This document shows positions 7,202 to 21,513 of a DNA stretch of 64,000 nt, piece after piece. This stretch comes from Bacteroidales bacterium (lineage in GTDB: Bacteria > Bacteroidota > Bacteroidia > Bacteroidales > UBA12077). The stretch lies in assembly GCA_003446015.1 (NCBI GenBank), contig DMBU01000068.1, forward strand, positions 27,286 to 91,285. Reading direction: 5' to 3'. Every line of letters starts with the position of its first letter. Position 1 is the first letter of the stretch. Made by a program: the position numbers and the translations under genes. The notes beneath the pieces were generated by a model that searched no databases, was not told the origin of the DNA, and saw only the letters and a list, made by a program, of their open reading frames with translations.

Positions 7202-7360
7202 ATGAAAACATTAAAAAACATTTTCGGAATTGAAGAAACAAAAAAAACAATAAATAATTTTTCAGGTAAACTGGATTTACATGCAATGATTTTGATTAAA
7301 GGTGGTGATGGGGATGATGATGATTTATGGCCACCTACAATTGGATCTGGTACAAACTAA
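7202..7360 (+). CDS. Unannotated 52-aa double-glycine-leader peptide (MKTLKNIFGIEETKKTINNFSGKLDLHAMILIKGG|DGDDDDLWPPTIGSGTN)
   Basis: Hand-translated ATG..TAA ORF. The MK-LKN start and IKGG end resemble the leaders at 12272, 12570 and 12971. A hairpin plus T-run follows. Confidence 0.6.
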   Translation: MKTLKNIFGIEETKKTINNFSGKLDLHAMILIKGGDGDDDDLWPPTIGSGTN

Positions 7361-7479: not shown

Positions 7480-8232
7480 ATGCAAACCAATTTTGAAACA
7501 ATTGAAAAATATATCGATGGCGAGCTGAAAGGAAACGAGTTACTCAAATTTGAGGAATTGCTTTCAATCGATCCCGATATAAAGCGCGATTATAAGTTGA
7601 GTTTGGAACTTAACAACTCCATCATGGAAGATGATGTTATAGCGCTAAGAGAAACAATGAACTACATGTACCAGGATGAAACAATTGTTAAAAGAATTCC
7701 AACGGTATTTACAAAACGAAAGTTTTATTATTATGCTGCGGCATCGGCAGCTTTACTTATTGCAACAGGTGGTTTAATGCAAAGATTATCCGGACCTGAA
7801 ATGAACAATACACGGGTATTCGAAAAGTATTATGCTCCTTATGAAGTTACGGTAACATATCGTTCTGGAAACACCGAGGTGGATCGTTTACTATTAAATG
7901 CACTGGAGCGTTACGAAGAAAAGGATTATGAATATGCCCTGGTACTTTTCGAAGAAGTTTTGGAGTCGCGGCAAAACGATATGGCTGTAAACCTATATTC
8001 AGGTATATCTTACATGGAAGAAGAAAAGTATCAAAAAGCTACAAAATCGTTTAGTAATATTATCTCCGATAAGGATAATTTATTTATTGAGCAAGCTAAC
8101 TGGTACCTGGCGATGTGCTATTTGAAAACTGAAAAAACAGATAAAGCACAAGATGTTTTAAGAGAAATTATTAATGAAGAAAGTTATTATAAAGAACAGG
8201 CAGCCAGGGTTTTAGAGGATATCGGAAATTAG
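7480..8232 (+). CDS. Single-pass membrane TPR protein, paralog of 3464..4204 (anti-sigma-like or LytTR-inhibitor-like)
   Basis: Same architecture and alignable N- and C-terminal blocks (IEKYIDGEL...; NWYLAMCYLK vs NWYLALVYLK). No sigma gene lies next to it. Confidence 0.5.
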   Translation: MQTNFETIEKYIDGELKGNELLKFEELLSIDPDIKRDYKLSLELNNSIMEDDVIALRETMNYMYQDETIVKRIPTVFTKRKFYYYAAASAALLIATGGLMQRLSGPEMNNTRVFEKYYAPYEVTVTYRSGNTEVDRLLLNALERYEEKDYEYALVLFEEVLESRQNDMAVNLYSGISYMEEEKYQKATKSFSNIISDKDNLFIEQANWYLAMCYLKTEKTDKAQDVLREIINEESYYKEQAARVLEDIGN

Positions 8233-8263: not shown

Positions 8264-9022
8264 ATGATGAAAGATAAGGTTAAAACCATAACTGACAATA
8301 CCATGAAAGATAACTGGAAAAAACACAATACTGAGAAAATTAGTTTTTTATCGCATATTTCTCATGGTATCCGAACTCCATTAAACTCCATCATGGGTTT
8401 TTCAAAATTGCTCACGTTAAGAGATCTTGTGGACAAAAAGCAAAAGGAATATGTTCAGGGAATTCTAAACGGAAGCAATTTATTACTTCAGTTTGTTGAT
8501 AATGTGATGGATTTATCTCAATTTGAAGCAAACAATTATTCGTTAAGAATAAAGGACTGCGATATAAATCAGGTAATATGGGAATTTACAGAAGATTTTT
8601 ACAATCAAAAGATTGAAAATAGAGATACCAACATAAATCTTGTGCTAGTGTGGGAAAGTGATGTTAAAGACCTGGTGGTTGAAACAGATGCTCTATTACT
8701 GAAAAAAGCCTTACAAAGAATTGTTAATCTTGTTTCTACAAAATATCCTATTTCAGAGTTTGAGTTAGGCTATCGAATTCTCGAAAATAAATCTTTGTGC
8801 ATTTATGTTCGACCAGCAAAAGAAAAATTAACGGAAGAAGATTTATTAATCGATCAACAGTTTTATTCAATTGATGATTACAATTCATTTGAATATTTTA
8901 ATTATAAAGTTCTTTATAGCGCAGTATTAATGTTAAGAGGCGAACTAACATTAAATTCCGAAAATCAGGAATTTTCTTTTATTATTCCTACGAAATATGA
9001 CATGAACAATATATTAATCTAA
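8264..9022 (+). CDS. HisKA (H-box) protein without sensor, TM or recognisable ATP-binding G-boxes
   Basis: H-box FLSHISHGIRTPLNSIMGF near the N-terminus. The C-terminal half lacks DxGxG/GxGxG motifs. No hydrophobic segment. Confidence 0.6.
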   Translation: MMKDKVKTITDNTMKDNWKKHNTEKISFLSHISHGIRTPLNSIMGFSKLLTLRDLVDKKQKEYVQGILNGSNLLLQFVDNVMDLSQFEANNYSLRIKDCDINQVIWEFTEDFYNQKIENRDTNINLVLVWESDVKDLVVETDALLLKKALQRIVNLVSTKYPISEFELGYRILENKSLCIYVRPAKEKLTEEDLLIDQQFYSIDDYNSFEYFNYKVLYSAVLMLRGELTLNSENQEFSFIIPTKYDMNNILI

Positions 9023-9037
9023 TTAAAATAAATAATT

Positions 9038-9490: not shown

Positions 9491-9826
9491 ATGGAAAATG
9501 TTGCAATTCATATAAACAGGCCCAAAACCAGCGATCTTAAAGAAGTTGTATTTTTAGAATCCATAGGAGGATTTACAAGAAAATATTGCAATAATGGAAG
9601 AGAATTTTTAGTTGAAAATGATTTACATAAACTAGAGGAAAGCCTACCTAAAGAAAAATTCTTTAAAATAAACGATTCGTTTATTATAAATGCCGACTAT
9701 TTAAAACGAATAAAAGTTCGGGCAATAAAAAATGTTTTATTACTAGGAGGAATAGAATTAAACATTGCTCAGGACAGATACTGGGAACTGGTTAAGTTTC
9801 TGAAATTTAAATATAATGTTTGGTAA
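9491..9826 (+). CDS. Stand-alone LytTR DNA-binding domain protein (no receiver domain)
   Basis: 111 aa. FFKINDSFIINADYLKRI. Clear paralog of 9885..10235. Confidence 0.7.
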   Translation: MENVAIHINRPKTSDLKEVVFLESIGGFTRKYCNNGREFLVENDLHKLEESLPKEKFFKINDSFIINADYLKRIKVRAIKNVLLLGGIELNIAQDRYWELVKFLKFKYNVW

Positions 9827-9884
9827 GATGCTTTGAGTTTAGGCTTAAAAATTTTAATCGTAAGATGATTTTTGGTGCTACATT

Positions 9885-10235
9885 ATGACGAAAAAGGCTA
9901 TTCTATTTAATGATAATGATAATTCGTTACTAGTAAAAAAACTTGACGAGATTGTTTATATGGAATCTTTCGGATGCAAGACCAAAACTTGTTTTTGCGA
10001 TGGGAAGGAACTTTTAATTAAAAAATATTTAAGTCAGGTTGAAGAATCTTTACCAAGTGAGAATTTTTTTAAAGTACATAAGTCGTTTATTATTAATATT
10101 AAATATCTCAAAGGGATTAATGTCAATACAAAGAAATCTGTTTTATTGAATGATGGGATCGAAATTAAAATCTCACATAGAAAATATAAAGATTTTATGG
10201 AATTCGTAAAAAATCGTTTTGTTATCTGGCAGTAA
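9885..10235 (+). CDS. Stand-alone LytTR DNA-binding domain protein (no receiver domain)
   Basis: 116 aa. FFKVHKSFIINIKYLKGI. Confidence 0.7.
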   Translation: MTKKAILFNDNDNSLLVKKLDEIVYMESFGCKTKTCFCDGKELLIKKYLSQVEESLPSENFFKVHKSFIINIKYLKGINVNTKKSVLLNDGIEIKISHRKYKDFMEFVKNRFVIWQ

Positions 10236-10255
10236 ATGAAAAGATTATTTATATC

Positions 10256-10295
10256 AAAGACCTAACAAGTTTAAAAATTTGTTAGGTCTTTTTTT
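10256..10295 (+). terminator. Strong rho-independent terminator ending the regulatory gene run
   Basis: Perfect 13-bp stem AAAGACCTAACAA / TTGTTAGGTCTTT with a 10-nt loop and a T-run. Confidence 0.8.
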
Positions 10296-10547
10296 AATCA
10301 AGAATTTATTCTGTTGAAAACTTTAATCAAAAATATTCATACGAAAAATTTAGAAAATGATACGACGATCATAAAAAATCAAACGAAAATTGTTTTTTAA
10401 GCTTTTTTGCAGAATTAACCATTTTGATGGCTTAAGAATTGTTTATAAATTCACTTAAAATCGGGACTGGATTATCAATTTATTAGTTAAAAAATTTACT
10501 CAAAAACTATTTGAGAAATAATTATTTATTTAATTAAGTAAATCAAC

Positions 10548-12164
10548 GTGAAAAATACTTCTATTTTTTTATTAAAAAAGCTTCTTAAAGCCTACACGAT
10601 TAAATTAGATGAAAAGGAGCTGGAATTTCAGCTATTAAGTCATCCTTCGTTTCCAAGTTTGCATTCTTTGACTGGCGTTCTTGACCATTTTAAAATAGAA
10701 AATGTTGCTCTGGAAGTTCCAAATAATTTGGAAACCCTAAGCCAAATGCCTAAAGTTTTTATTGCATATATAAAAAAGGGAAAAAGTGATGATTTGGTAT
10801 TGGCCACAATTGCCGACTCTCAGGTTACACTTATCTATAACGATAAAATTAGAGAAGTTTTATCATTAAATCAATTTTGTGAAATTTGGTCCGGGATTTT
10901 TATAGCCATTGAAAAAGATAATGAAGTAATTTCAAAATCAAAAGTAAGCCTAAAAGGTTTAAGAGCCTTACCTGTATTACTTACATTACTTGCGCTAATT
11001 ACGTTATTTTTTACTTTTAAACCAGGGTTGTTTCAATCAATTCATTTCTTACTTTCGTTTATCGGATTTGGGGTAAGTATAATAATAGTAAAACATGAAT
11101 TAGGACTTTATTCAAGGATTGCAGATAAAGTTTGCTCAGGAAATTACAAGAAAATTAATTGTGATGAGGTACTTAAATCAAAGGCAGCGTCATTCTTAGG
11201 ATTTATTAAATTAAGTGATATTGGAATTGTCTATTTTATTTCAATGATTTTATCATGGATGCTTATTATTATAAGTGGAGCCAGCAATACAACAATAATT
11301 TTAATTACTATACTGGCACTGCCGTTTACACTATATTCTGTTTCATATCAATATTTTATAGTAAAAAAATGGTGTGTGCTATGTTTAAGTATTGTTTTAA
11401 TACTGTGGTTACAAGCATTCTCATTGTATTATAGTGATTTTAAATTTAATCAGGTTATACTTAGCCCAATTAGTTTGAAGTTAATTGTAGTTAGTGTACT
11501 ATTTTCAATTGTTGCCTGGCAATTTATTTTACCTAGACTAAAAAAAGAGCAGGCTTTTGTTAAGCTTAAAATAGAACATTTTAAGTTTAAACGGAACTTT
11601 AGCTTGTTTAAAGCACTGCAATCAGTAATAAATCCAATAAATACAACTATAAATGGTATACAGGAAATTCAATTTGGCAATAACCCAAAATTCCTTCATG
11701 TAATAATAATTACAAACCCATTGTGTGGGTACTGCAGGGAAACTCATGCTTTAGTTGAAAAATTACTGGAAAGAACAGGTGTCGAGTTGCAGGTTACAAT
11801 AAGATTTAATGTAAGTCTAAAAGAAGAATCTATAGATACCTCAATAGCACATAAACTTTTCGAAACATATAATGCAAAAGGGGAGAAAGAGTGTTTAAAC
11901 GCGATGCACGATATTTATGGTAAACTAAACCCAACGGACTGGTTCAAGAAATGGGGAGAACCTTCAAGTCATCAATATATAGAGTCATTAAGTAAGCAGA
12001 AACAGTGGTGTGTTAAATCAAATATAAATTTCACCCCCGAAATTTTAGTAAATGACAAAGCATTTCCAAAGGAATATGAGCGGTTGGATTTACTATATTT
12101 CTTAGACGATATTATTGAAGATGTTAGGGAGGAAACATTGGTTTTAATTAAGGAAGAAGTATAG
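10548..12164 (+). CDS. Fusion protein: degenerate C39-like N-domain, VKOR (vitamin K epoxide reductase) membrane domain and thioredoxin/DsbA-like domain
   Basis: N-terminal ~130 aa resemble a C39 domain but lack the Cys and His. VKOR loop cysteines CSGNYKKINC and membrane CXXC (WCVLC). C-terminal thioredoxin-type CGYC. GTG start taken from the ORF track. Confidence 0.7.
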   Translation: MKNTSIFLLKKLLKAYTIKLDEKELEFQLLSHPSFPSLHSLTGVLDHFKIENVALEVPNNLETLSQMPKVFIAYIKKGKSDDLVLATIADSQVTLIYNDKIREVLSLNQFCEIWSGIFIAIEKDNEVISKSKVSLKGLRALPVLLTLLALITLFFTFKPGLFQSIHFLLSFIGFGVSIIIVKHELGLYSRIADKVCSGNYKKINCDEVLKSKAASFLGFIKLSDIGIVYFISMILSWMLIIISGASNTTIILITILALPFTLYSVSYQYFIVKKWCVLCLSIVLILWLQAFSLYYSDFKFNQVILSPISLKLIVVSVLFSIVAWQFILPRLKKEQAFVKLKIEHFKFKRNFSLFKALQSVINPINTTINGIQEIQFGNNPKFLHVIIITNPLCGYCRETHALVEKLLERTGVELQVTIRFNVSLKEESIDTSIAHKLFETYNAKGEKECLNAMHDIYGKLNPTDWFKKWGEPSSHQYIESLSKQKQWCVKSNINFTPEILVNDKAFPKEYERLDLLYFLDDIIEDVREETLVLIKEEV

Positions 12165-12210
12165 ATTCCGGATAATTATCTAGGAATTACTAAAATATTT
12201 TTTTGAAATG

Positions 12211-12260
12211 AAAAACCGAAACCTTGACGGTTTTAAGTGCTCAAGGTTTATTAACCCAAA
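12211..12260 (+). promoter_or_regulatory. Conserved precursor 5' element, copy 1
   Basis: AAAAACCGAAACCTTGACGGTTTTAAGTGCTCAAGGTTTATTAACCC ends 14 nt before the ATG at 12272. Near-identical copies lie at 12508 and 12912, and a diverged copy at 13420. Confidence 0.6.
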
Positions 12261-12271
12261 ATTTTATTAAT

Positions 12272-12418
12272 ATGAAAAATTTAAAAAATTTAAAAGGAGC
12301 TAAGAAGCTTAGCAAAATGGAGCAAAAAGCGATTAAAGGAGGCTATGCCTGCAGAGAACCCGAAATGTGGTGCCCTCCAGGAAGTTGTTGTGTAAATGGT
12401 CTTTGCAGGCTTTGTTAG
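12272..12418 (+). CDS. GG-leader precursor peptide A1 (MKNLKNLKGAKKLSKMEQKAIKGG|YACREPEMWCPPGSCCVNGLCRLC)
   Basis: In-frame internal start of ORF 12224..12418, chosen by paralog alignment. 24-aa leader ending in GG. 6-Cys core. Confidence 0.8.
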   Translation: MKNLKNLKGAKKLSKMEQKAIKGGYACREPEMWCPPGSCCVNGLCRLC

Positions 12419-12442
12419 CGGTTAATCTCACTATTCATGAAG

Positions 12443-12470
12443 TTACCTGAAATTGTTCAGGTAATTTCTT
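12443..12470 (+). terminator. Hairpin after precursor A1
   Basis: TTACCTGAA-attg-TTCAGGTAA followed by a T-rich tail. The homologous hairpin after A3 differs by pair-preserving (C-G to U.G wobble and U-A to C-G) changes. Confidence 0.55.
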
Positions 12471-12507
12471 AATAATTTTATATGAACATAGTGTGTAATA
12501 TATGTAT

Positions 12508-12560
12508 AAAAACCGAAACCTTGACGGTTTTAAAATGCTCAAGGAATATGAACCTAAAAT
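12508..12560 (+). promoter_or_regulatory. Conserved precursor 5' element, copy 2
   Basis: AAAAACCGAAACCTTGACGGTTTTAAAATGCTCAAGGAATATGAACC upstream of the ATG at 12570. Confidence 0.6.
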
Positions 12561-12569
12561 TTTAATAAA

Positions 12570-12743
12570 ATGAAAGATTTAAAAAATTTAAAGGGTGCTA
12601 AAAAGCTTAGCAAAAATGAACAACGATCTATTAAGGGAGGGATTGACATATGTGATATATACGGACATGATTGTCCTGAAGGTTATGTGTGTCAATGGAG
12701 AAACAGAACTACGGGTTGGTGCATACCTTATATTGAAGATTAG
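12570..12743 (+). CDS. GG-leader precursor peptide A2 (MKDLKNLKGAKKLSKNEQRSIKGG|IDICDIYGHDCPEGYVCQWRNRTTGWCIPYIED)
   Basis: Hand-translated, below the ORF-track size cutoff. Leader nearly identical to A1. 4-Cys core. Confidence 0.8.
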   Translation: MKDLKNLKGAKKLSKNEQRSIKGGIDICDIYGHDCPEGYVCQWRNRTTGWCIPYIED

Positions 12744-12750
12744 TTGTCAA

Positions 12751-12791
12751 AGTAAACTATAGAATACCCGACAGATTTTCTATCATTTACT
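12751..12791 (+). terminator. Interrupted hairpin after precursor A2
   Basis: AGTAAA..ATAGAA / TTCTAT..TTTACT. No clear T-run. Confidence 0.3.
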
Positions 12792-12911
12792 CATTATGAG
12801 CATTGAAAAGTTTTGTTTTTGAAAAATTTGAATCTGCTTAACAGAACGGGTCTTATAATGAATAATTTTAACAAAGTTTCATGACAAGCGAATTTACTTT
12901 AGAGTTGCTAT

Positions 12912-12960
12912 AAAAACCGAAACCTTGACGGTTTTAAAATGCTCAAGGTTTATTAACTTA
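12912..12960 (+). promoter_or_regulatory. Conserved precursor 5' element, copy 3
   Basis: AAAAACCGAAACCTTGACGGTTTTAAAATGCTCAAGGTTTATTAACTT upstream of the ATG at 12971. Confidence 0.6.
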
Positions 12961-12970
12961 AAAGTTTTAA

Positions 12971-13141
12971 ATGATGAAAGATTTAAAAAATTTAAAAGGC
13001 GCTAAGGTACTTAGCAAAAATGAGCAAAAAGTAATAAAAGGTGGATATGAGAAATGTGGGTTACATCCTGATCTAGGAACACTATGCCATGTAGGTTTTT
13101 GTTGTGTAGGCAGCGCTTGTTTGCCTTGTATGGAACCGTAG
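12971..13141 (+). CDS. GG-leader precursor peptide A3 (MMKDLKNLKGAKVLSKNEQKVIKGG|YEKCGLHPDLGTLCHVGFCCVGSACLPCMEP)
   Basis: Hand-translated. Leader homologous to A1 and A2. 6-Cys core with the same C-C-CC-C-C order as A1. The start could be the second ATG at 12974. Confidence 0.8.
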   Translation: MMKDLKNLKGAKVLSKNEQKVIKGGYEKCGLHPDLGTLCHVGFCCVGSACLPCMEP

Positions 13142-13168
13142 CTAAAACTTTTTTTGGCTCTTATGAGG

Positions 13169-13189
13169 TTATCCGAATTTTTCGGGTAA
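13169..13189 (+). terminator. Hairpin after precursor A3
   Basis: TTATCCGAA-ttt-TTCGGGTAA at the same relative position as the A1 hairpin. Confidence 0.45.
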
Positions 13190-13419
13190 TCTCTTATCTA
13201 GTCTTTTAGAAAAACAAAAGTTTCGTTGAATTCTATGAAACTTTATGAAAATTAAAGTTTTATATATTATTATTCAGCTGTTACCTGCAAAAGATATATT
13301 TGCCAAATGATAGCTGGATTTTTGACTTAATGATTATCGATAGTATTAAAATACTGGAGGTAGTTATGTTGACACTAAGTGATTAGCGAAAGTTTTATAA
13401 AATAATTGCGAGCAATGAA

Positions 13420-13468
13420 TAAACCGAAACCTTGAAGGTATTAGGTGTTCAGGAATTATTAACCCAAA
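13420..13468 (+). promoter_or_regulatory. Conserved precursor 5' element, diverged copy 4
   Basis: AAACCGAAACCTTGAAGGTATTAGGTGTTCAGGAATTATTAACCC upstream of the ATG at 13479. Confidence 0.5.
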
Positions 13469-13478
13469 TTTTTTAAAA

Positions 13479-13640
13479 ATGAAAAACAAAAAAAGATCAG
13501 ACTATTCATTATTATTTGATAATGAAAAAGCAATGTCTAAAGATGAACTGAATTTAACTAAAGGAGGTAGTGCATGTAATAATTTTCCAGTATTTGCAGG
13601 ACCCGTTTTCATGGGTTGGGCATATATTGGTCTCGGTTAA
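13479..13640 (+). CDS. GG-leader precursor peptide B1 (MKNKKRSDYSLLFDNEKAMSKDELNLTKGG|SACNNFPVFAGPVFMGWAYIGLG)
   Basis: Hand-translated. 30-aa leader of a second class ending in KGG. Hydrophobic core with 1 Cys. Confidence 0.7.
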   Translation: MKNKKRSDYSLLFDNEKAMSKDELNLTKGGSACNNFPVFAGPVFMGWAYIGLG

Positions 13641-13682
13641 CAACAATAAAAAATAATTAAACATTATCTAAATAAAAATAAA

Positions 13683-13856
13683 ATGAAAAAAGATAACAAA
13701 AACAGTTTTGAGTTAATCTTTGAGCAAAAAGATTTAATGAATAAAAATCAGATGAATGTTTTAAAGGGTGGAGCCCCATCTGGTTGTGTGGATATAAATA
13801 TTGGTTTCATTGCTTGTACAAATTTATGTATTGGTAAAGCACAGTATCCAGAATAA
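13683..13856 (+). CDS. GG-leader precursor peptide B2 (MKKDNKNSFELIFEQKDLMNKNQMNVLKGG|APSGCVDINIGFIACTNLCIGKAQYPE)
   Basis: Hand-translated. Leader alignable to B1 (S-(D/F)-(Y/E)-(S/L)-(L/I)-(L/I)-F...KGG). 3-Cys core. Lies 42 nt after B1. Confidence 0.7.
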   Translation: MKKDNKNSFELIFEQKDLMNKNQMNVLKGGAPSGCVDINIGFIACTNLCIGKAQYPE

Positions 13857-13892
13857 TTAAGGATAGAAGAATAATAGGTCCTTTTCGTTACA

Positions 13893-13923
13893 AAGAAAGT
13901 TACAAAAATGTTGTAACTTTCTT
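13893..13923 (+). terminator. Strong hairpin terminator after the precursor array
   Basis: Perfect 13-bp stem AAGAAAGTTACAA / TTGTAACTTTCTT with a 5-nt loop. Confidence 0.7.
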
Positions 13924-14145
13924 ATTTAAATGAGTAATATCATGAGTAGCTTGCAATTATAAATTATCAAATTACCTGAATATTTATACTAAAGAATAAA
14001 GTAGGATTGTTAAATTAAATTTAGCATCATAAAACACTCATATCAGTATTAGCACCTAGTTAATAAATTCTAATGATTAAATGCTTGTAGTAGAAATAGT
14101 TAAATAAATAATAAAGTAATATAGAAGAATTTAGAAAAATCTAAA

Positions 14146-15498
14146 ATGAATAATTATATGAATGAATACAAGAACTCCTCCCTTTTTTTTAATCCACATG
14201 GGGATATTATTAAAAATCAAGAAAAGAATCAGGTTGCATTAATAAATCCATTACTAAATACTTGGATTAAGATTAGTTGTAATGCATATGAAATGATTGA
14301 AAAGCTTACAAGTTCAAGTATAAATGGGTTAATTGAAAAGCAAGAAATAGATGAAGATTCTAAAGATGATTTTGTAAAATTGGTTAATTATTTAATCAGT
14401 AATAAATATCTATTGACAAAGTTTGAATATGATGTATTTAAAAATGTAAATATCTTAGAAGGCTATCAGGAAATGGTAAAATCAGTATTGCCAGAAATGT
14501 CTAAAAGACTATATTTAAGCCTTACTTCATCTTGTAATCTAAAATGTATTCATTGCTATAACACTGTAAAAAAGCCTAGTGAATATTTGGGTGAAGAAGA
14601 TCAAATTATTTATGATATTTTAGAAAAATTGAAGGATAATTATTTTTATGAGATTATCCTTACTGGAGGAGAACCATTTCTTAGAAAAGATATTTTTGAA
14701 ATCATAGAACAAACGATTGAAATTAGTAAAGAAGTTACAATAAATACAAATAGTTTATTATTAAATAAACAAAAAATAGAAAGATTAAAGAAGTATAAAA
14801 ATCTTACAATAGCTGTAAGTTTGGATGGTTTAACAAAAGCAACGCATGAAAACATTCGAGGTGTAAATACATTCGAGAAAACATTAGCAAATATTAATGC
14901 ACTAATTAAAAATGGGATTAAAACACATATTATTGCAACAGTTACAAAAAAGAGTTATAAAGAATTAGTAGGATTTGATGATTTTATTAAAGAATTAAGA
15001 ACTACTGGTAATTTAAGTTTTTTTACTCCTGTAGGAAAGGGCAAGGAATCGATTGATAATCTGATTATGGATAATAACGAACTTCAAGAATATTCAAATT
15101 TATTATTTGAAAAGCATAAAGATAAATTTGCAGATCAATTTGAAAAAGATAAAAATCATTCAATTCCAATTAAATTTAATTGTTCTGCTGGAATTGGTAT
15201 TTTAGGAATTGAACATACGGGAAGAGTTGTGCCATGTCATTTATTTCTCGGGAAAGATATTTCTCTTGGAAATATTTTGAGCGAATCGTTAGTAGACATG
15301 CAATTAAAGTGGTTAAAAAATGGAATTTTATCGGTTGATAGTAATTCTGAATGCAAAGATTGCTCAATAAGACATTTTTGTGGTAATGGTTGTTTAGCAA
15401 ATACTTATTACAATAATGGAACATTTAATGGAAAGGACCCTAATTGCCTCATCCATAAAATAGGAATACAGAGTAAAATATGGTATTGTGAAAATTAA
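14146..15498 (+). CDS. Radical SAM/SPASM-domain peptide maturase with N-terminal RRE-like extension
   Basis: CNLKCIHC (CX3CX2C). Cys-rich C-terminal SPASM-type region (CSAG...PCH ; CKDCSIRHFCGNGC...NC). About 120 aa precede the rSAM core. Confidence 0.8.
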   Translation: MNNYMNEYKNSSLFFNPHGDIIKNQEKNQVALINPLLNTWIKISCNAYEMIEKLTSSSINGLIEKQEIDEDSKDDFVKLVNYLISNKYLLTKFEYDVFKNVNILEGYQEMVKSVLPEMSKRLYLSLTSSCNLKCIHCYNTVKKPSEYLGEEDQIIYDILEKLKDNYFYEIILTGGEPFLRKDIFEIIEQTIEISKEVTINTNSLLLNKQKIERLKKYKNLTIAVSLDGLTKATHENIRGVNTFEKTLANINALIKNGIKTHIIATVTKKSYKELVGFDDFIKELRTTGNLSFFTPVGKGKESIDNLIMDNNELQEYSNLLFEKHKDKFADQFEKDKNHSIPIKFNCSAGIGILGIEHTGRVVPCHLFLGKDISLGNILSESLVDMQLKWLKNGILSVDSNSECKDCSIRHFCGNGCLANTYYNNGTFNGKDPNCLIHKIGIQSKIWYCEN

Positions 15499-15523
15499 TC
15501 TTTGTTTAATTAATTTAAAAATA

Positions 15524-16171
15524 ATGGATTTAAAGTTTTTTAAGAAGAACCTGATTGACTACTTATTTCTACCATTTTTAATTATTTCATTTTATTTGTA
15601 TTTAAATGAAAACAGACAAGGACTATTTGGGTATTATGTGATAATATTTGCTGTTTTAGTAGTCCTTAAATTCTCAAAGGAAGGATTTATAAATCTTTGT
15701 AGTTTATCTCTGGGTCAGGAACATAAAAAGATTTCTTTTGTTTCTTTTATGCTTTTAATCGTATCTTCAATTATTACATCTAATATTATATCATTTATCA
15801 TTCAAAGCAAATTTTTAAACGAGCATTATACAACAAAAAATTATTTTGATTATAATTTTTTGTATGTGTTTTTTATTTTTAATACTGTTCGCATATTTGG
15901 TGAAGAACTAATATTTCGAGGCTTTCTATTAATTGAGGATATTAGGATGAATAAAAGCGTATTTTGGTGGTTAAATCTCTTACAGGCTATTATGTTTAGT
16001 TTGATACATAGTTTTTTTGTGGAAGAACTGTCAAGTAAACTTGTTTTTACAAGCTACGTATTTTTATTCTCAATTTTTGCGGGTTGGATAAATAAGAAAT
16101 ATAATAGTTTACTCCCCAGTTGGATAATTCATTGGGCTAATGGGATTCTGAACTTTCTATATGTATTTTAG
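15524..16171 (+). CDS. CPBP-family intramembrane glutamic endopeptidase (CAAX protease / bacteriocin self-immunity type)
   Basis: EELIFRGF, FSLIH and IIHWANG motifs in a polytopic membrane protein. The alternative GTG start at 15488 overlaps the rSAM gene. Confidence 0.75.
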   Translation: MDLKFFKKNLIDYLFLPFLIISFYLYLNENRQGLFGYYVIIFAVLVVLKFSKEGFINLCSLSLGQEHKKISFVSFMLLIVSSIITSNIISFIIQSKFLNEHYTTKNYFDYNFLYVFFIFNTVRIFGEELIFRGFLLIEDIRMNKSVFWWLNLLQAIMFSLIHSFFVEELSSKLVFTSYVFLFSIFAGWINKKYNSLLPSWIIHWANGILNFLYVF

Positions 16172-16301
16172 CATAATTTTATTTAGAATTAACACATTTA
16201 AAAAATAGCTAATATTAGATATTGGTCGGATAATAAATATAATATTTCCTCAATTAATTTTAAATCCCTATTTTAGGAAGTTATTAAATCAATCATAAAA
16301 A

Positions 16302-18518
16302 ATGTCTTTCCCAAATTATAAACAACTCGATGCCATGGATTGCGGTCCAACCTGTTTAAGGATGATTGCAAAGCACTATGGCAAATCTTATTCATTACAA
16401 AACCTTCGTGATAAGAGCTACATTACCCGAGAGGGTGTTTCAATGCTTGGCATCAGTGATGCTGCTGAAGCAATTGGTTTTCGTAGTATGGGTGTTCGTA
16501 TTACGTTCGATCAACTCGTGAACGAAGCTCCACTGCCATGTGTGGCACATTGGAATCAAAATCATTTTGTTGTTGTATACAAGATTAAGAAAATCTCCCC
16601 AAACCCGTTTCGAAAAGGTGGAGTATTTGTTTATGTTTCTGACCCTGCTCGAGGGTTAATAAAATTTACTAAGGAAGAATTTGAAAATGCTTGGGCAAAT
16701 ACAAAAGAAGACGGAGAGGAAAAGGGCCTTTGCCTTTTACTTGAACCAACACCAGATTTTTACAAGGCCGATGACGAGAAGTTGAATAAATCCGGATTTA
16801 AGTTTTTGTTTTCTTATTTACGACCATATAAAAAGATTATAGTTCAATTATTCCTTGGACTGTTGTTAGGGAGTTTACTACAACTTATTTTTCCATTTTT
16901 AACACAGAGTATTGTCGATAAGGGTATTAATAATCAAAATCTCGATTTTGTTACATTAATCATCATAGCTCAATTAGTTTTAATATTTTCAAGAACTATA
17001 GTAGAATTCATTCGTAGTTGGATATTGTTGCACCTTGGAACAAGAATAAACATTTCTTTAATTTCTGATTTTTTAATCAAGTTAATGAAACTGCCGGTTT
17101 CATTTTTCGATACTAAAATGATTGGTGATATCATTCAGCGTATTGGCGATCATAAAAGAATAGAAAGCTTTTTAACTTCATCTACCTTAAATATTTTATT
17201 CTCCTTTATAAATCTTATCATCTTTGGTATTGTATTATTGTATTATAGTATAAACATTTTCTTAATATTTCTTGCAGGAAGTTTTCTCTATACTGCATGG
17301 GTTTACCTATTCATGAAAAAGCGACGCGATCTGGATAATCGTCGGTTTGCCCAAATGTCAAGTAATCAAAGCAATGTAATTCAGTTAATAACCGGAATGC
17401 AGGAAATTAAGCTGAATAATTGCGAAAAACAAAAGCGCTGGGAGTGGGAGAATATTCAGGCCCGATTATTTAAAGTGAATATGGCAAGTTTATCCTTAAG
17501 TCAGTATCAGCAGGCTGGAGGAGTTCTAATCAACGAAGTAAAAAATGTAGCTATAACTTTTATTGCTGCAAAATCAGTAATCGATGGCAATATGACATTG
17601 GGTATGATGTTGGCGGTTCAATATATTATTGGTCAGTTAAACAGCCCAATCAATCAAATGATTACTTTTTTACAATCAACACAGGATGCAAAAATAAGTT
17701 TGGAACGACTGGGTGAAATTCATCAAAAGGAAAATGAAGAATCTGATGAAGAACCAAAAATTGATATCTTACCTGAACATAGGGAGTTAAATCTTAATAA
17801 CATATTTTTTCAGTATGAAGGTCCTCACTCACCTTTTGTATTAGATGATGTAAATTTGAATATCCCCGAAAAGAAAATAACAGCCATTGTAGGGACCAGC
17901 GGAAGCGGAAAAACAACATTAATTAAGTTATTGTTAGGGTTTTATAATCCAACCAAAGGAAAAATAAATCTGGGCGATCTGTATTTGAATAATGTAAGTA
18001 ATAGAATGTGGCGCGATAAATGTGGAGTTGTAATGCAGGATGGATTTATATTTTCTGATTCAATTGCAAATAACATCTCGGTTATGGATGAATTTCCTGA
18101 CAGAGAAAGACTTTTACATGCTGTTAAAGTGGCCAATATTCAGGAATTTATTGAGTCATTGCCTTTAGGATACAATACTAAAATAGGACAAAATGGAGTA
18201 GGCTTGAGTCAGGGTCAAAAGCAGCGTATTTTAATAGCACGTGCCGTGTATAAAAATCCTGAGTTTATATTTCTTGATGAAGCTACCAATGCACTTGATG
18301 CCAACAATGAGAGGACCATCATGGAAAACCTTGATCAGTTTTTTAAAGGAAAAACAGTAGTTATTGTTGCACATCGATTAAGTACTGTTAAAAATGCCGA
18401 TCAGATTGTAGTATTGGAAAAAGGGAAAATTGTAGAATTAGGTACACATACTGAATTAGCTAAAAAGAAGGGAGTGTATTATGAGTTGGTTAAGAATCAG
18501 TTGGAGTTGGGTTCTTAA
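16302..18518 (+). CDS. Peptidase C39 domain-containing bacteriocin/peptide-cleavage-export ABC transporter
   Basis: N-terminal C39 with catalytic Cys (MDCGPTCLRM) and His (HWNQNHFVVV). 6-TM domain. Walker A GTSGSGKTT, signature LSQGQKQR, Walker B IFLDEAT. Confidence 0.9.
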   Translation: MSFPNYKQLDAMDCGPTCLRMIAKHYGKSYSLQNLRDKSYITREGVSMLGISDAAEAIGFRSMGVRITFDQLVNEAPLPCVAHWNQNHFVVVYKIKKISPNPFRKGGVFVYVSDPARGLIKFTKEEFENAWANTKEDGEEKGLCLLLEPTPDFYKADDEKLNKSGFKFLFSYLRPYKKIIVQLFLGLLLGSLLQLIFPFLTQSIVDKGINNQNLDFVTLIIIAQLVLIFSRTIVEFIRSWILLHLGTRINISLISDFLIKLMKLPVSFFDTKMIGDIIQRIGDHKRIESFLTSSTLNILFSFINLIIFGIVLLYYSINIFLIFLAGSFLYTAWVYLFMKKRRDLDNRRFAQMSSNQSNVIQLITGMQEIKLNNCEKQKRWEWENIQARLFKVNMASLSLSQYQQAGGVLINEVKNVAITFIAAKSVIDGNMTLGMMLAVQYIIGQLNSPINQMITFLQSTQDAKISLERLGEIHQKENEESDEEPKIDILPEHRELNLNNIFFQYEGPHSPFVLDDVNLNIPEKKITAIVGTSGSGKTTLIKLLLGFYNPTKGKINLGDLYLNNVSNRMWRDKCGVVMQDGFIFSDSIANNISVMDEFPDRERLLHAVKVANIQEFIESLPLGYNTKIGQNGVGLSQGQKQRILIARAVYKNPEFIFLDEATNALDANNERTIMENLDQFFKGKTVVIVAHRLSTVKNADQIVVLEKGKIVELGTHTELAKKKGVYYELVKNQLELGS

Positions 18519-18530
18519 TGGAAAAGTTTG

Positions 18531-18558
18531 CAGTTTGCAGTTTGCAGTCGGCAGTTTA
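18531..18558. repeat. Tandem heptamers CAGTTTG x2, CAGTCGG, CAGTTTA
   Basis: Read directly. About 6/7 complementary to the downstream CCAACTG units. Confidence 0.85.
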
Positions 18559-18609
18559 TACTAAATTTTAAATGATCGAATCAATAATATTAAAATTATT
18601 TACAGCATT

Positions 18610-18984
18610 ATGGGTGATTTCAGAGATTTAAAGGTTTATAAATTATCATATAAACTAGCAATGGAGATTTTTCATATAACTAAAAAATTTCCAAAAGAAG
18701 AAAGGTATTCCTTAACCGATCAGATTAGAAGGTCTTCACGTTCTGTAACTACAAACATCTCTGAATCATATCGGAAAAGAAGATATCCAAAACATTTTAT
18801 AAGTAAATTAAGTGATTCTGATGCTGAATTGGCTGAAACTCTTACTTGGTTAGACTTTTCGAAAGATTGTGAATACATTAATTATGAAGAACATACGTAT
18901 TTTATAAATGAGTATGAAGAGGTTGGAAAGATGTTAGGAAGTATGATAAATAAGCCAGAAAGATTTATAATAACAAATGGTTAA
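18610..18984 (+). CDS. Four-helix-bundle protein (23S rRNA intervening-sequence protein family)
   Basis: FRDLKVYKLSYKLAMEIFHITKKFPKEERYSLTDQIRRSSRSVTTNISE and the length are typical of this family. Confidence 0.8.
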   Translation: MGDFRDLKVYKLSYKLAMEIFHITKKFPKEERYSLTDQIRRSSRSVTTNISESYRKRRYPKHFISKLSDSDAELAETLTWLDFSKDCEYINYEEHTYFINEYEEVGKMLGSMINKPERFIITNG

Positions 18985-18987
18985 CAA

Positions 18988-19036
18988 CCAACTGCCAACT
19001 GCCAACTGCCAACTGCCAACTGCCAACTGTAAACTG
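18988..19036. repeat. Tandem heptamers CCAACTG x6 plus one degenerate unit (TAAACTG)
   Basis: Read directly. Translates as the artefactual QLPTANCQLPTANC at the 5' end of ORF 18977..20365. Confidence 0.9.
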
Positions 19037-19042
19037 AGCATT

Positions 19043-20365
19043 ATGAAAGAAAAACAAGAGTTCGAAAAAATAGAATTACGAAGCAACGAAGTACAAGAGA
19101 TCCTCACACGTCCTCCAAAATGGATTGTACGATGGGGAATAACAATGATCTTTGTGGTTATTATTGTTATTTTAACTGGTAGTTGGTTTTTTCAATACCC
19201 AGATATTGTTTCGGCTCAAATCGTTTTAACAACGGAGAACCCACCGGCTCCTGTTTTAGCAAAAACATCAGGGAAAATTCAAAAGCTACTTGTCTCAAAT
19301 GATGATGTAGTTGCTAAATATCAAGATTTAGGTGTTATCGAAAACCCTGGAAGTTTTGAATCAATTGTTAATCTATTAAAACAATTGGAATATTTTAAAG
19401 CAAATTTTAAACCAGGAGAGATTTTTAGTTTATCAAATCAATCTTATATTCTTGGTGATATCCAGTCAAGTTATGCCAGTTTTTATGCAAATGTTGAAGA
19501 GTACAACAAGTCGATCAAATTAAATTATCATAGACAAAAGCTGGATTTATATAAAAAGGAGCTAAAAAAATATGATAATTATTTAGCTAATATTATAACT
19601 CAAAACACAATTCTCCAGGAAGAACTTAATTTAACAAAGAAGCAGTATAACAGAGATTCTGTTTTATTTTCCAAAAATTTATTATCGGAATCTGATTTTG
19701 ACAAATCGAAGTCAGCTTTACTTTCTAAATTTTATAATTACGAGCAAAATAATGTAACTATTTCAAATGTTGAAATTCAGATTGAAAGTTTAAATCAAAG
19801 CATTCTCGAACTTGAGTTACAGCAAGAAAAACAAATTTCTGATCAAACTTCGCTTATTTGGGAATCGTACGAGAATCTCTTAGCAGCAATTAATTCATGG
19901 AAACACAACTATGTTTTAATTGCCCCAACTGATGGAATAGTAGGTTTTAATAAATTTTGGAATGAAAACCAATCGGTTAAAGCCGGGGAAACTGTAATGA
20001 CAATTATTCCAAGAGATGAGGGGAAATTAATAGGGAAAGTACAGTTAACCTTTCAAGGTGCGGGTAAAGTTAAAGAAGGTCAGAAGGTAAATATACAGTT
20101 TTCAAATTATCCATATATGGAATTTGGAATGGTTAGAGGTATCGTGAAATCTATTTCTCTTGCTCCCGATAATAATTATTATACTGCTGAAATTCAATTA
20201 CCCAATGGCTTAAAGACCTTTTACGGGATTGATCTGAATTTTAAACAAGAGATGCAAGGTACGGCCGAAATTATTACTGAAGATATGCGCTTATTGGAAA
20301 GAATCGTGAGGCCCCTCCAATTTATTTTAAATAAAAATACTAAGTTTGGGGATCACAACAATTAA
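19043..20365 (+). CDS. HlyD-family membrane fusion/secretion protein (partner of the C39-ABC exporter)
   Basis: Start moved to MKEKQEF, downstream of the repeat array. N-terminal TM, long coiled-coil region and a C-terminal beta-barrel-like region. Confidence 0.8.
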   Translation: MKEKQEFEKIELRSNEVQEILTRPPKWIVRWGITMIFVVIIVILTGSWFFQYPDIVSAQIVLTTENPPAPVLAKTSGKIQKLLVSNDDVVAKYQDLGVIENPGSFESIVNLLKQLEYFKANFKPGEIFSLSNQSYILGDIQSSYASFYANVEEYNKSIKLNYHRQKLDLYKKELKKYDNYLANIITQNTILQEELNLTKKQYNRDSVLFSKNLLSESDFDKSKSALLSKFYNYEQNNVTISNVEIQIESLNQSILELELQQEKQISDQTSLIWESYENLLAAINSWKHNYVLIAPTDGIVGFNKFWNENQSVKAGETVMTIIPRDEGKLIGKVQLTFQGAGKVKEGQKVNIQFSNYPYMEFGMVRGIVKSISLAPDNNYYTAEIQLPNGLKTFYGIDLNFKQEMQGTAEIITEDMRLLERIVRPLQFILNKNTKFGDHNN

Positions 20366-20370
20366 TAGCT

Positions 20371-21096
20371 ATGTTAAAACACCCGTATAGTATTTTTAGT
20401 TTCACAGTAAAATCATATCATTCAGATCAAAATGGCAAATTAACCTTGCCGGCATTTTTTCACTTTTTGCAGGAATGCGCCTGGGATAATGCCAGACTAA
20501 ATGATTTTGGTTATGAATATCTATTGAAGGAAAATGCATTCTGGGTCTTGTCACGTGTACTGGTTCAAATAGATAAATACCCTGAGTGGAAAGATGAAAT
20601 TGAAATTAAAACCTGGCCAAAAGGTACCGATGGTTTTTTTGCACTTCGTGATTTTGAAATTTATTTAAAGGGAGAAATTATAGGCAGAGCTTCTAGTTCA
20701 TGGTTAATTCTCGATTTTGATACCAGGCGTCCGCGAAAACTTGAGAATTTTAACTTTATCCACGAAAATTTTATTCACGAAGGGGCCATTGATCGAAAAC
20801 TTGAAAAAATCGTATTCAAAGGCGAGTTGAACAAACTGGAAAGGAGAAAAGTGTATCAGAGTGATTTAGATGTAAATAAACATGTGAATAATGCAACCTA
20901 TGTTCGATGGATTATGGATTCTTACTTTTCTGATAGTAATCGTGAGCCGGTTTTTGAATTTGAGATTAATTTTATTTCAGAACTGTCTTTAAATGATGAA
21001 TTTACAATACATAATCTTGATTTCAATCAAGGAAATTATTTTGTTCTTAAAAATCTAAGCGATAAAGAGGTTTGCAGGGCCAGTATTAGATCATAA
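20371..21096 (+). CDS. Acyl-ACP thioesterase family protein
   Basis: Double hot-dog layout. N-terminal block (SYHSDQNGKLTLPAFFHFLQECAWDNA) and DVNKHVNN motif. Lies 5 nt after the HlyD stop. Confidence 0.75.
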   Translation: MLKHPYSIFSFTVKSYHSDQNGKLTLPAFFHFLQECAWDNARLNDFGYEYLLKENAFWVLSRVLVQIDKYPEWKDEIEIKTWPKGTDGFFALRDFEIYLKGEIIGRASSSWLILDFDTRRPRKLENFNFIHENFIHEGAIDRKLEKIVFKGELNKLERRKVYQSDLDVNKHVNNATYVRWIMDSYFSDSNREPVFEFEINFISELSLNDEFTIHNLDFNQGNYFVLKNLSDKEVCRASIRS

Positions 21097-21132
21097 AAAA
21101 ATCCGAGAGATTAGCCCGGATTCTTTTGTCAT

Positions 21133-21513
21133 TTAAAATGGTAAATCATCAGATTCATTTTCAGGAGGTAAATCGTCCAGAGATGGAGGAGGAGAATTAC
21201 TGAAATCATTTGAATTTTGATTTTGAACCTTTTCAATTTTCCATGCATCCAGATTTGTAAAATAGCTTACTTTACCATCACGTTCCCATTTATTTCCGCG
21301 AATATTGAAGCTTACTTTTACTTCATCGTTAAACTCGATATTATCCATCAAATTGCATTTGTCCTGAGTGAGTTGAAATTTAATGTGATCCGTAAATTCC
21401 ATTCCCCCGTTTGATTCCGTTCTTTCAACAACAAACTCACGTTTTTTAAAACGATCATTCACCTGAATCGTATTATATTTTTCAATTATTTTTCCTGTGA
21501 TTTCGAAACTCAT
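21133..21513 (-). CDS. DUF3127-like OB-fold protein with acidic C-terminal tip
   Basis: MSFEITGKIIEKY...KKREFVVE N-terminus. The C-terminus ends in ESDDLPF. Confidence 0.6.
   Translation of the reverse strand: MSFEITGKIIEKYNTIQVNDRFKKREFVVERTESNGGMEFTDHIKFQLTQDKCNLMDNIEFNDEVKVSFNIRGNKWERDGKVSYFTNLDAWKIEKVQNQNSNDFSNSPPPSLDDLPPENESDDLPF

Follow-up and report, generated by a model that had tools for sequence, protein, structure and literature searches.

How do the Bacteroidota make secreted peptides that carry several disulfide bonds, and on which side of the inner membrane are these bonds formed? The question is raised by a peptide locus in an uncultured Bacteroidales bacterium (UBA12077), which we analyzed within a stretch of 64,000 nt of contig DMBU01000068.1 (assembly GCA_003446015.1); this whole stretch is called the window, and its numbering is used throughout. 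An earlier note on this DNA had reported, in a single same-strand run, a fusion of C39-like, VKOR and thioredoxin domains, five short open reading frames (ORFs) whose leaders end in a double glycine (GG), a radical SAM/SPASM enzyme, a CPBP-type protease, a C39-ABC exporter and a HlyD partner. All of these ORFs are indeed present on the + strand at the positions claimed for them, and searches with the Pfam and NCBIfam hidden Markov models uphold the domain assignments of the flanking enzymes. That inventory was nevertheless incomplete, since it overlooked a 23S_rRNA_IVP gene (18610-18984), a sixth GG-leader ORF (7202-7360) and a set of TPR, HisKA and three LytTR genes. It also did not consider the membrane side of the disulfide enzyme, to our mind the most interesting question that the locus poses.

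The answer that we propose, with a probability of about one half, is that the fusions are naturally inverted VKORs, flipped by an additional transmembrane (TM) helix, TM0; that their inactive C39 domain captures GG leaders; that disulfides are formed before export in thousands of Bacteroidota loci; and that a 5' pseudoknot RNA of a new class, located in the precursor cassettes, governs the expression of these. With distinctly greater confidence, we regard the island itself as a modular secreted-peptide locus, bacteriocin-like or signaling, in which two maturation modules probably share one exporter and one regulatory block. Related or compared loci that were fetched for comparison are labeled L001, L006, L131, and so on.

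A C39-like/VKOR/DsbA-like fusion and its predicted orientation

The fusion (538 aa; 10548..12164, + strand) contains a VKOR domain (PF07884) that Pfam scores at 60.2 bits, against a gathering threshold of 27.5, and a partial Peptidase_C39 match of 29.4 bits (cutoff 22) that covers profile positions 18-132 only. An AlphaFold2 (AF2) model of it (pLDDT 86) consists of an alpha/beta domain (residues 1-121), six TM-length helices (136-156, 161-184, 222-243, 248-272, 277-295 and 307 to ~330) and a C-terminal domain. The membrane part is composed of a five-TM VKOR core, with Cys196 and Cys205 in a loop and a C276xxC279 motif, preceded by TM0, which is considered an addition because the Pfam VKOR match begins only at the second helix. 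Residues 370-538 form a DsbA-like thioredoxin domain with its CXXC motif at C393xxC396. In Foldseek comparisons, the N-terminal domain matches the peptidase domains of PCAT1 and ComA (TM-score, TMt, 0.63-0.69), and the C-terminal domain matches ScsC, DsbA and BdbD (E ~1e-5, TMt 0.6-0.73). Comparisons at the level of sequence were less productive: phmmer found no match to the fusion among the PDB sequences, a profile search gave only marginal ones, and hhalign of the fusion family with the C39 domain of the window's own exporter returned only a short, low-probability alignment across the HFVVV region.

The pattern of conservation among 130 diverse members of the family differs between the domains. 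The six cysteines C196, C205, C276, C279, C393 and C396 are invariant in 130/130 members, and the T496-P497 pair that contains the cis-Pro is likewise invariant; the C-terminal domain thus combines the CXXC, the cis-Pro and the fold with a helical insert that characterize the DsbA-like thioredoxins. In the N-terminal domain, there is not a single conserved cysteine within residues 1-125; the region of the catalytic Cys reads SHPS(Y/F)PS, and the position of the His that aligns to the NHFVVV of the exporter is not conserved. Hence, the fold and the Pfam match are those of a C39 peptidase, and the catalytic Cys/His dyad is missing. Such a domain could still bind a leader while being unable to cut it.

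This family is a large one. A profile search found 2885 representatives (at 50% identity) with E<=1e-30; the top 150 of these are nearly all full-length, three-domain proteins, and the C39-like domain is conserved throughout. In a collection of 185,579 species, each represented by one genome, 425 stretches encoding the fusion were confirmed by tblastn, and the hosts listed include Bacteroidales metagenome-assembled genomes (MAGs), Labilibaculum, Ancylomarina, Marinifilum and Flavobacteriaceae. No model for the fusion was found in NCBIfam and our literature searches found no paper on it, in agreement with the earlier note's remark that the combination was not a characterized one; the family is, as far as we found, large yet unstudied.

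The question of orientation follows from the helix count. With six TM helices, the N-terminal domain, the Cys loop and CXXC of the VKOR core and the thioredoxin domain should all lie on the same side of the membrane. On this active-site side, the mean number of lysines plus arginines (K+R) is 12.0, versus 0.56 in the three short opposite loops, and the bias is present in 130/130 members; when only the short segments are counted, the figures for the same 130 members are 7.3 versus 0.56. In its hydrophobicity, TM0 is on a par with the other helices, and in 127/130 members the N-terminus does not resemble a signal peptide. In the solved VKOR of Synechococcus the bias is the opposite: the loops equivalent to TM2-3 and TM4-5 contain 3 and 2 K/R, versus means of 0.07 and 0.38 in the fusions. 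This single solved sequence is the charge-bias control; its K/R residues were counted by hand on a chain fragment, and a search for further control sequences returned one protein. Because of the charge bias and the positive-inside rule, we place the redox sites of the fusion on the cytoplasmic side, an assignment that we think is on balance probable. Where the active site of a canonical VKOR is extracytoplasmic, the six helices and the K+R bias thus predict, as a prediction from sequence, a cytoplasmic one. To our knowledge, all of the characterized bacterial VKOR and DsbB enzymes act extracytoplasmically; engineered inverted forms of DsbB and VKOR exist, as does an archaeal case, none of which was found in our literature searches. 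The predicted location would be a sensible one for a leader-binding domain, as the cytoplasm is the only compartment that contains intact GG leaders, because peptidase-containing ABC transporters (PCATs) cut their leaders on the cytoplasmic side.

The scheme that we envisage for this first module (module A, 10548-13141) is as follows. The noncatalytic C39-like domain would bind the GG leader of a class A precursor, and the quinone-linked VKOR core together with the DsbA-like domain would oxidize the 4 or 6 cysteines of its core to 2 or 3 disulfides. This leader-guided oxidation of the full-length precursor would take place on the membrane's inner face, the electrons passing to menaquinone, and only then would the precursor be handed over to the PCAT.

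Class A precursors and the pseudoknot upstream of their genes

The presumed substrates of the fusion are encoded immediately downstream of it on the + strand. The first class A precursor (12272..12418) has a leader of 24 aa, which recurs in L001, L080 and L115, and the six-Cys core YACREPEMWCPPGSCCVNGLCRLC; the second (12570..12743) and the third (12971..13141, with a start codon at 12971 or 12974) have cores with 4 and 6 Cys. Their leaders, of 24-25 aa, conform to MK(N/D)LKNLKGAK.LSK.EQ..IKGG. The three score 13.9, 19.9 and 15.7 bits with NF047798, a model of the Chryseobacterium-type leader whose cutoff is 23.5, and so appear to be related to it in style. The claim that there are five short GG-leader ORFs in two leader classes stands, and in related loci the same leaders recur attached to other cores. 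Such genes do, as had been predicted, evade routine calling: with a 60-aa cutoff, only a TTG-extended version of the first (12224-12418) would be listed.

The link of these precursors with the fusion is a general one. We fetched 80 fusion loci and scored them for same-strand GG-leader ORFs with at least two core cysteines; such Cys-rich ORFs are present in 72/80, at 4.4 per locus on the same strand versus 0.175 on the opposite strand, and they far exceed chance. A PCAT gene is located downstream in 52/80 of the loci and a HlyD gene in 44/80; a homologue of the window's radical SAM enzyme occurs in just 1/80. Among the unique cores with two or more cysteines, the cysteine count is even in 322 (four in 151 cores, six in 135 and eight in 27) and odd in 20, an excess of the kind that full disulfide pairing predicts.

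Several of these loci deserve separate mention. The Tenacibaculum loci L166, L168-L172, L185 and L194 each encode 13-17 distinct Cys-rich GG precursors, located on both sides of the PCAT gene. L080 (WTBJ01000025.1, 2686 nt), which is binned as Mycoplasmataceae, contains several class A cassettes with their pseudoknots in a style nearly identical to that of the window; it is probably a fragment from Bacteroidales that was put in the wrong bin. After the first class A gene there is an AT-rich hairpin (TTACCTGAA...TTCAGGTAA) and then a T-rich run, both in the window (12444-12465) and in L001 (~2955-2980); our terminator scan did not call the AT-rich hairpins that are visible after the peptide genes.

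Four of the five precursor genes are preceded by a motif of ~55 nt that contains a 34-nt H-type pseudoknot ~25 nt before the start codon. All four copies are on the + strand: copy 1 (12213..12246; stem S1 AAACCG/CGGTTT, stem S2 CCTTGA/TCAAGG) precedes the ATG at 12272, copy 2 (12510..12544) that at 12570, copy 3 (12914..12948) that at 12971/12974, and copy 4 (13421..13454) the ATG at 13479 of the first class B gene. In this last copy, only 4/6 of the S1 pairs and 5/6 of the S2 pairs can form; the orthologous copy in L006 is intact. A sequence-only covariance model was searched against 90 sources, 80 of them the fusion loci, and yielded 202 matches at E<=1, of which ~170 are copies at E<0.01, nearly all in the sense orientation. 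They are spread over L001, L006, L080, L115 and L131-L209, and many of the precursor genes in the Tenacibaculum loci carry a pseudoknot of their own.

The two interleaved 6-bp helices, separated by loops of 3 nt, 0 nt and ~8 nt, are paired in 97.7% of the cells of the resulting alignment, which was made without regard to the structure, versus 86.6% in shuffled controls and at most 51% when the arms are slid by 1-3 columns. Compensatory changes are found in 10/12 pairs, and on no measure did any of 500 shuffles reach the observed value. The stem variants include AGACAC/GTGTCT, AGACTG/CAGTCT, CTGTGA/TCACAG and TCTTGA/TCAAGA, with several of them present within one genome. In the stems, G-U combinations occupy 97 cells versus 9 for A-C, an excess which argues that the pairing occurs in the sense-strand RNA. 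A GG-leader ORF begins within 60 nt downstream of 134/140 copies, the start codon being located 48-56 nt past the start of the 5' arm of S2, and just upstream of the pseudoknot there is a conserved box, A.AA.ATT.T.TCGCGAA.AAT.

The Rfam models gave no match at E<=1 in 7000-21500 except for an unrelated, weak Leu_leader, and literature searches found no relevant paper on a pseudoknot motif with bacteriocins. An exact-pattern scan of the genome collection gave ~118 matches, nearly all of them chance occurrences in unrelated phyla, as is to be expected when 18 fixed bases are sought in 596 Gb; only those in L080 and L115 are real. The description of these units as individually promoted cassettes finds no support here: the repeat upstream of the genes is a covarying RNA pseudoknot, and a sigma-70 scan of 10200-14200, which does not model Bacteroidota promoters, found 18 sites versus 23 expected. 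In our scheme, the pseudoknot would control the stability or the translation of the precursor mRNAs; it may be a 5'-terminal stabilizer, a translational control element or a switch that binds a ligand or a protein.

Module exchange around one exporter, and its neighboring genes

A small number of relatives occupy the same genomic site as the window and share its flanking genes (an acyl-ACP thioesterase, DUF3127 and a PPIase). L001, from the Bacteroidales MAG GLR59, contains the fusion, two class A precursors, the PCAT and HlyD; it has neither the radical SAM nor the CPBP gene. L131 likewise has no radical SAM or CPBP gene, and it contains a block of CHAT, TPR, HisKA and LytTR genes followed by the fusion, class A precursors, PCAT, IVP and HlyD. 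L006 contains the reverse selection: the regulatory block, four class B precursors, radical SAM, CPBP, PCAT and HlyD are present, and the fusion, the class A precursors and the IVP gene are all absent. The more distantly comparable loci L007-9, L210 and L211 have the order class-B-type precursors, radical SAM, CPBP, PCAT and HlyD, again with no fusion. The window is thus the union of both modules. The PCAT is the best conserved protein of the island (89% identical to the window's in L001, 85% in L006 and 89% in L131), and since this 85-89% identity holds in fusion-type and radical SAM-type loci alike, the same pump should serve either leader class. The segregation of the modules in these syntenic genomes therefore lends support to the earlier proposal that two leader classes are matched to two maturation enzymes and a single C39-ABC/HlyD exporter.

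The second module (module B, 13479-16171) begins with two class B precursors on the + strand, whose 30-aa leaders end in L(T/L)KGG. The first (13479..13640) has the leader motif YSLLF and a hydrophobic core, SACNNFPVFAGPVFMGWAYIGLG, with 1 Cys; the second (13683..13856), which starts 42 nt after the first and has no pseudoknot of its own, has the motif FELIF and the three-Cys core APSGCVDINIGFIACTNLCIGKAQYPE, and its orthologue in L006 is at 9661. The leader motif [FY]x[LI][LI][FY] is common to fourteen associated precursors, as are a Cys near the N-terminus of the core, an internal Gly that never varies and (Y)IG at the C-terminus. The module's enzyme, which is encoded at 14146..15498 (+), matches Radical_SAM at 96.7 bits and SPASM at 25 (cutoff 21.5); its translation contains CNLKCIHC (CX3CX2C) and a seven-Cys SPASM region made up of C..G....C, CKDCSIRHFCGNGC and a final C. 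Its nearest relatives in the PDB are SkfB, SuiB and CteB, and its nearest curated family is the sactipeptide maturase StsB. Its score is, however, below every one of the curated cutoffs (StsB, NF045574, 141.1 versus 625; AlbA 84.9 versus 850; SkfB 79 versus 300; PapB 100 versus 340), and within a database of 5.8 billion protein clusters its clade contains only ~10 full-length members of >35% identity, all of them metagenomic. The curated families of the GG-Bacteroidales system that the earlier note had invoked are not matched: TIGR04149 scores 12.7 versus a cutoff of 25, with one precursor only, TIGR04148 is outside the best 25 families (below ~71 bits), and no second radical SAM-like ORF that might be a pseudo-rSAM partner is present in the locus.

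In this module, the radical SAM/SPASM enzyme would modify the two hydrophobic precursors. A thioether macrocycle derived from Cys is our most plausible guess for the product, given that the characterized enzymes nearest to this one are sactipeptide maturases and that an N-proximal Cys is retained in every core. The enzyme's more remote relatives (31-40% identity; L010/L011, L212 and L213) belong to a different type of cluster, termed type ii, in which a short non-GG precursor that begins MF(D/E)(I/L)L(F/Y) is accompanied by a transglutaminase-core protein, DUF5128 and plain ABC transporters in place of CPBP and PCAT; L010 and L011 additionally have a YcaO gene. Since the [FY]x[LI][LI][FY] motif is retained even in these non-GG precursors, it is probably the mark by which the radical SAM enzyme recognizes its substrates. 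The last gene of the module (15524..16171, +, with a possible GTG start at 15488 that overlaps the radical SAM stop codon) encodes a CPBP/Rce1-like intramembrane protease homologue (PF02517, 47.9 bits versus 22.4), which in type-i clusters (five related clusters) always follows directly on the radical SAM gene. Proteins of the CPBP/Abi group are known bacteriocin immunity factors, and by analogy the most likely role of this one is producer immunity.

The exporter shared by the two modules is encoded at 16302..18518 (+) and has the architecture of a PCAT: a C39 peptidase, an ABC transmembrane domain and a nucleotide-binding domain (Peptidase_C39 109.8, ABC_membrane 115.2, ABC_tran 105.6 bits). 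Its catalytic Cys (in DCGPTC) and His (in NHFVVV) are intact. It scores below the cutoffs of the curated subfamilies (TIGR01193 437.6 versus 523.85; TIGR03796 465 versus 853), and its membership is assigned from its architecture, not as an equivalog of one of these subfamilies. Together with the HlyD-family periplasmic adaptor (19043..20365, +; HlyD_3, 50.6 bits), it would cut both leader classes after the GG and export the cores. No TolC-like gene was seen between 7.2 and 21 kb by inspection of the ORFs and Pfam matches, as had been noted earlier.

Between PCAT and HlyD lies a segment (18525..19029, +) with a 23S_rRNA_IVP/bAvd-like gene of 124 aa (Pfam 118 bits), flanked by inverted heptamer arrays (18525-18557, AGTTTGC x4.7; 18988-19029, CCAACTG x6; both from TRF) that could pair, with a predicted duplex energy of -44.4 kcal/mol. 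The gene is missing from L001 and L006 and is in the same position in L131; together with its arrays it resembles an rRNA intervening sequence placed in an mRNA. A different kind of interruption is seen in L007-L009, where a DDE transposase is inserted into the PCAT gene (12147-16410).

Upstream of the fusion is a putative regulatory block. Beside it lies the sixth GG-leader ORF (7202..7360, +; MKTLKNIFGIEETKKTINNFSGKLDLHAMILIKGG / DGDDDDLWPPTIGSGTN), which has a third class of leader and a Cys-free, acidic core. Its orthologues are, at the corresponding position, in L006 (5388-5555) and, as two copies, in L131 (4911 and 5101), with a D-rich ..WPP.. core that reads DDLWPP in the window and L131 and DNWPP in L006. 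Next come a single-pass TPR protein with what we read as an anti-sigma-like N-terminus (7480..8232, +; 72% identical to its orthologue in L006 and 53% in L131), which is a paralogue of that encoded at 3464-4204, a HisKA-only protein (8264..9022, +; 56.3 bits) in which Pfam detects no HATPase_c domain, and three LytTR proteins that stand alone, with no receiver domain (9038-9391, 9491-9826 and 9885-10235, +; 49.7, 39.9 and 64.6 bits). The HisKA protein is conserved in L006 and L131, and the same three LytTR genes are present in L006; as a set, a HisKA protein with no detectable ATPase domain and three LytTRs without receivers (8264-10235) is unusual, and it is conserved in both L006 and L131. 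On the + strand, the terminator scan called only a terminator-like hairpin that follows the third LytTR gene (10256-10291). Given its position beside the TPR, HisKA and LytTR genes, the Cys-free GG-leader peptide is a candidate pheromone or inducer. Further upstream, there are two candidate extracytoplasmic function (ECF) sigma factors with Pfam sigma-70 region 2 matches (1798-2367 and 2871-3467). The second of these is followed by the paralogous TPR anti-sigma-like protein (3464-4204), and the sequence after the first, 2369-2785, has no Pfam match. A TPR-CHAT protein of 933 aa is encoded on the minus strand within 1798-6983, and the same block is present in L006.

Alternative readings and known relatives

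The most serious alternative to a cytoplasm-facing oxidase, unlikely in our estimation though far from negligible, keeps the same two modules and gives the fusion the canonical orientation. The thioredoxin and VKOR sites would then be periplasmic and would oxidize the class A cores after their cleavage by the PCAT and release into the periplasm, as has been proposed for the anchored thioredoxin of the bacteroidetocin loci; the C39-like domain would be periplasmic as well, or would dock onto the exporter. The extracytoplasmic location of the characterized VKOR/DsbB enzymes, including the Synechococcus VKOR-Trx chain, speaks for it, as does the N-terminal anchor of the bacteroidetocin oxidoreductase, which puts the thioredoxin fold outside; moreover, in a locus with no TolC gene, a release into the periplasm is conceivable. 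It has, however, to accept that six TM helices force the N-terminal domain onto the thioredoxin side, so that a folded domain of ~135 aa would need to be translocated without a signal peptide, and that the charge bias runs in the wrong direction in every one of the 130 members. It also leaves a GG-leader-binding fold with no ligand in the periplasm, given that leader removal by the PCAT is cytoplasmic. Very much less probable is the notion that the fusion stands in for DsbB/DsbA as a general disulfide catalyst of the envelope, that it just happens to lie beside peptide genes, and that the class A cysteines are oxidized nonspecifically or never. In other phyla, VKOR-DsbA fusions do have a housekeeping role as oxidases, and 8/80 of the fusion loci have no detectable peptide ORF; this notion is nonetheless difficult to reconcile with the same-strand Cys-rich ORFs in the other 72, with the PCAT directly downstream in 52, with the retention of the C39-like domain throughout the top 150 representatives, or with L006, which lacks the fusion and the class A peptides jointly. 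There are, in addition, several considerations that weaken our own proposal of a cytoplasmic, leader-guided oxidation with pseudoknot-controlled cassettes. The topology of the fusion comes from the positive-inside rule, helix counting and one structural control, the thioredoxin matches in Pfam are weak and below their cutoffs, with the fold call relying on the AF2 model, and a VKOR that faces the cytoplasm would have to compete with the thiol reductants there. One of the four pseudoknots is degenerate, and the second class B precursor has none. More generally, expression, cleavage, chemistry and activity are all predictions from sequence.

The upstream element and the biological role of the peptides can each be read in another way, and both of these readings appear to us improbable, the first slightly more so. 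The element could be a DNA site, a promoter or an operator for LytTR or an ECF sigma factor, for example, and not an RNA structure: to our eye GAAACC..TCAAGG resembles the -35/-10 boxes of the ECF type, interleaved inverted repeats might serve as operators, there are adjacent LytTR and sigma genes, and the case for RNA is itself made from sequence. Such a site would not be expected to carry different compensatory variants in single genomes (CTGTGA/TCACAG beside CCTTGA/TCAAGG, for example), nor 10/12 covarying pairs in an alignment made without reference to the structure, and the strand-specific tolerance of G-U over A-C is expected only for a sense-strand RNA. An ECF-type promoter or a LytTR operator as the identity of the element is disfavored by this tolerance and by the within-genome variants; the two readings are not mutually exclusive, because of the conserved box just upstream. 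As to function, the class A or class B peptides, or both, might be signals or other secreted peptides, with the CPBP protein acting in their processing. PCAT systems also export pheromones, the window encodes a pheromone-like Cys-free GG peptide, and the activity of the peptides is predicted from their sequences. The CPBP protein could well be a protease and not an immunity factor, its place in the type-ii clusters being taken by the transglutaminase-core protein; the class B chemistry is likewise a guess, as the radical SAM enzyme is far under every curated cutoff, and of the class B cores one contains just one Cys. An antimicrobial role nevertheless fits better with the established function of the CPBP/Abi proteins in immunity and with the many divergent cores, up to 17 per locus, behind one conserved leader, which are typical of bacteriocin arsenals. 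The closest characterized analogues, the bacteroidetocins, are furthermore toxins (PMC6671954).

The bacteroidetocins (class IIf, of Bacteroides and Prevotella), for which our comparison was with one fetched locus, L214, are 4-Cys toxins with GG leaders whose loci encode a PCAT and a dedicated thiol oxidoreductase that is needed for full activity; this enzyme has been argued to exist because Bacteroides lack a general disulfide machinery (PMC6671954). The similarities to the window are thus the Bacteroidota host, the GG leaders, the even number of cysteines and the dedicated thiol oxidoreductase and PCAT in one operon. The differences are nevertheless numerous. The bacteroidetocin oxidoreductase is an N-anchored thioredoxin-like protein of 173 aa, which has no VKOR or C39-like domain and no BLASTP similarity to the thioredoxin domain of the window; for its TM partner of 221 aa, there is no match in Pfam, no window counterpart and no BLASTP match to the window's CPBP protein; the two PCATs are only 25% identical; and the leader is 15 aa long, versus 24-25 in the window. 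No radical SAM or HlyD gene is listed in the four-gene bacteroidetocin regions or in L214. By the TM protein and oxidoreductase comparisons, and by the leader length of its precursors, the window is an analogue of the bacteroidetocin system and not a member of it. The idea that the bacteroidetocin pair of 5-TM protein and thiol oxidoreductase is a split version of the fusion was also considered and rejected: the TM protein has no Pfam match or visible CXXC, and neither protein resembles the window proteins with which it was compared.

Other resemblances concern single components. The Synechococcus VKOR (PDB 4NV6/4NV2) has, like the fusion, the four catalytic VKOR cysteines and a C-terminal thioredoxin partner that is attached via a fifth TM helix; it lacks the additional N-terminal helix, the C39-like domain and the DsbA-like type of partner, its sequence similarity to the fusion is marginal (E 0.06), and the reversed charge bias of its short loops predicts the opposite orientation. 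The peptidase domains of PCAT1, ComA and LahT have the same papain-like C39 fold in the same N-terminal position before a TM helix, and the C39-like domains (CLDs) of the HlyB type, which bind substrates, have similarly lost the catalytic Cys and His; all of these are joined to an ABC transporter, whereas in the fusion the domain is joined to a redox enzyme. SkfB, CteB, StsB and PapB share with the window's radical SAM enzyme the CX3CX2C core, the full SPASM, a precursor gene immediately upstream and Cys-containing cores, and the GG-Bacteroidales system (TIGR04148/04149/04150) shares GG leaders and PCAT export; the window differs from these systems in its scores below the cutoffs, in having no pseudo-rSAM partner and in the CPBP gene fixed downstream. 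A Cys-free GG peptide encoded next to HisKA and LytTR genes and upstream of the cassettes recalls the three-component regulation of Gram-positive class II bacteriocins, although here the HisKA protein has no detectable ATPase or visible TM sensor segment, the LytTR proteins have no receivers, and TPR anti-sigma-like and sigma-70 region 2 genes are present in addition. The locus is best viewed, as these sequence comparisons support, as one more form of the PCAT-dependent peptide loci, in which the elements of most note are a leader-guided VKOR oxidase that probably faces the cytoplasm, a pseudoknot RNA not described before and a very small radical SAM clade with new precursors.

The window displays the exchange of modules at a single locus, around an exporter that stays fixed, and it offers a testable answer to how the Bacteroidota make secreted peptides with multiple disulfides. 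If this answer is correct, disulfide formation would here be a tailoring step in the style of the RiPPs, peptides made on ribosomes and modified after translation, one that precedes PCAT cleavage and export, and the PCAT route may bypass periplasmic folding altogether. A natural VKOR that faces the cytoplasm would represent a new solution to oxidative folding and a tool for making disulfide-rich peptides in cells. The compact pseudoknot that marks the precursor genes is at once a regulatory puzzle and a handle for genome mining, and the fusion family, attached as it is to hundreds of peptides, diverse and with 4, 6 or 8 Cys, that escape routine gene calling, constitutes a substantial untapped reservoir.

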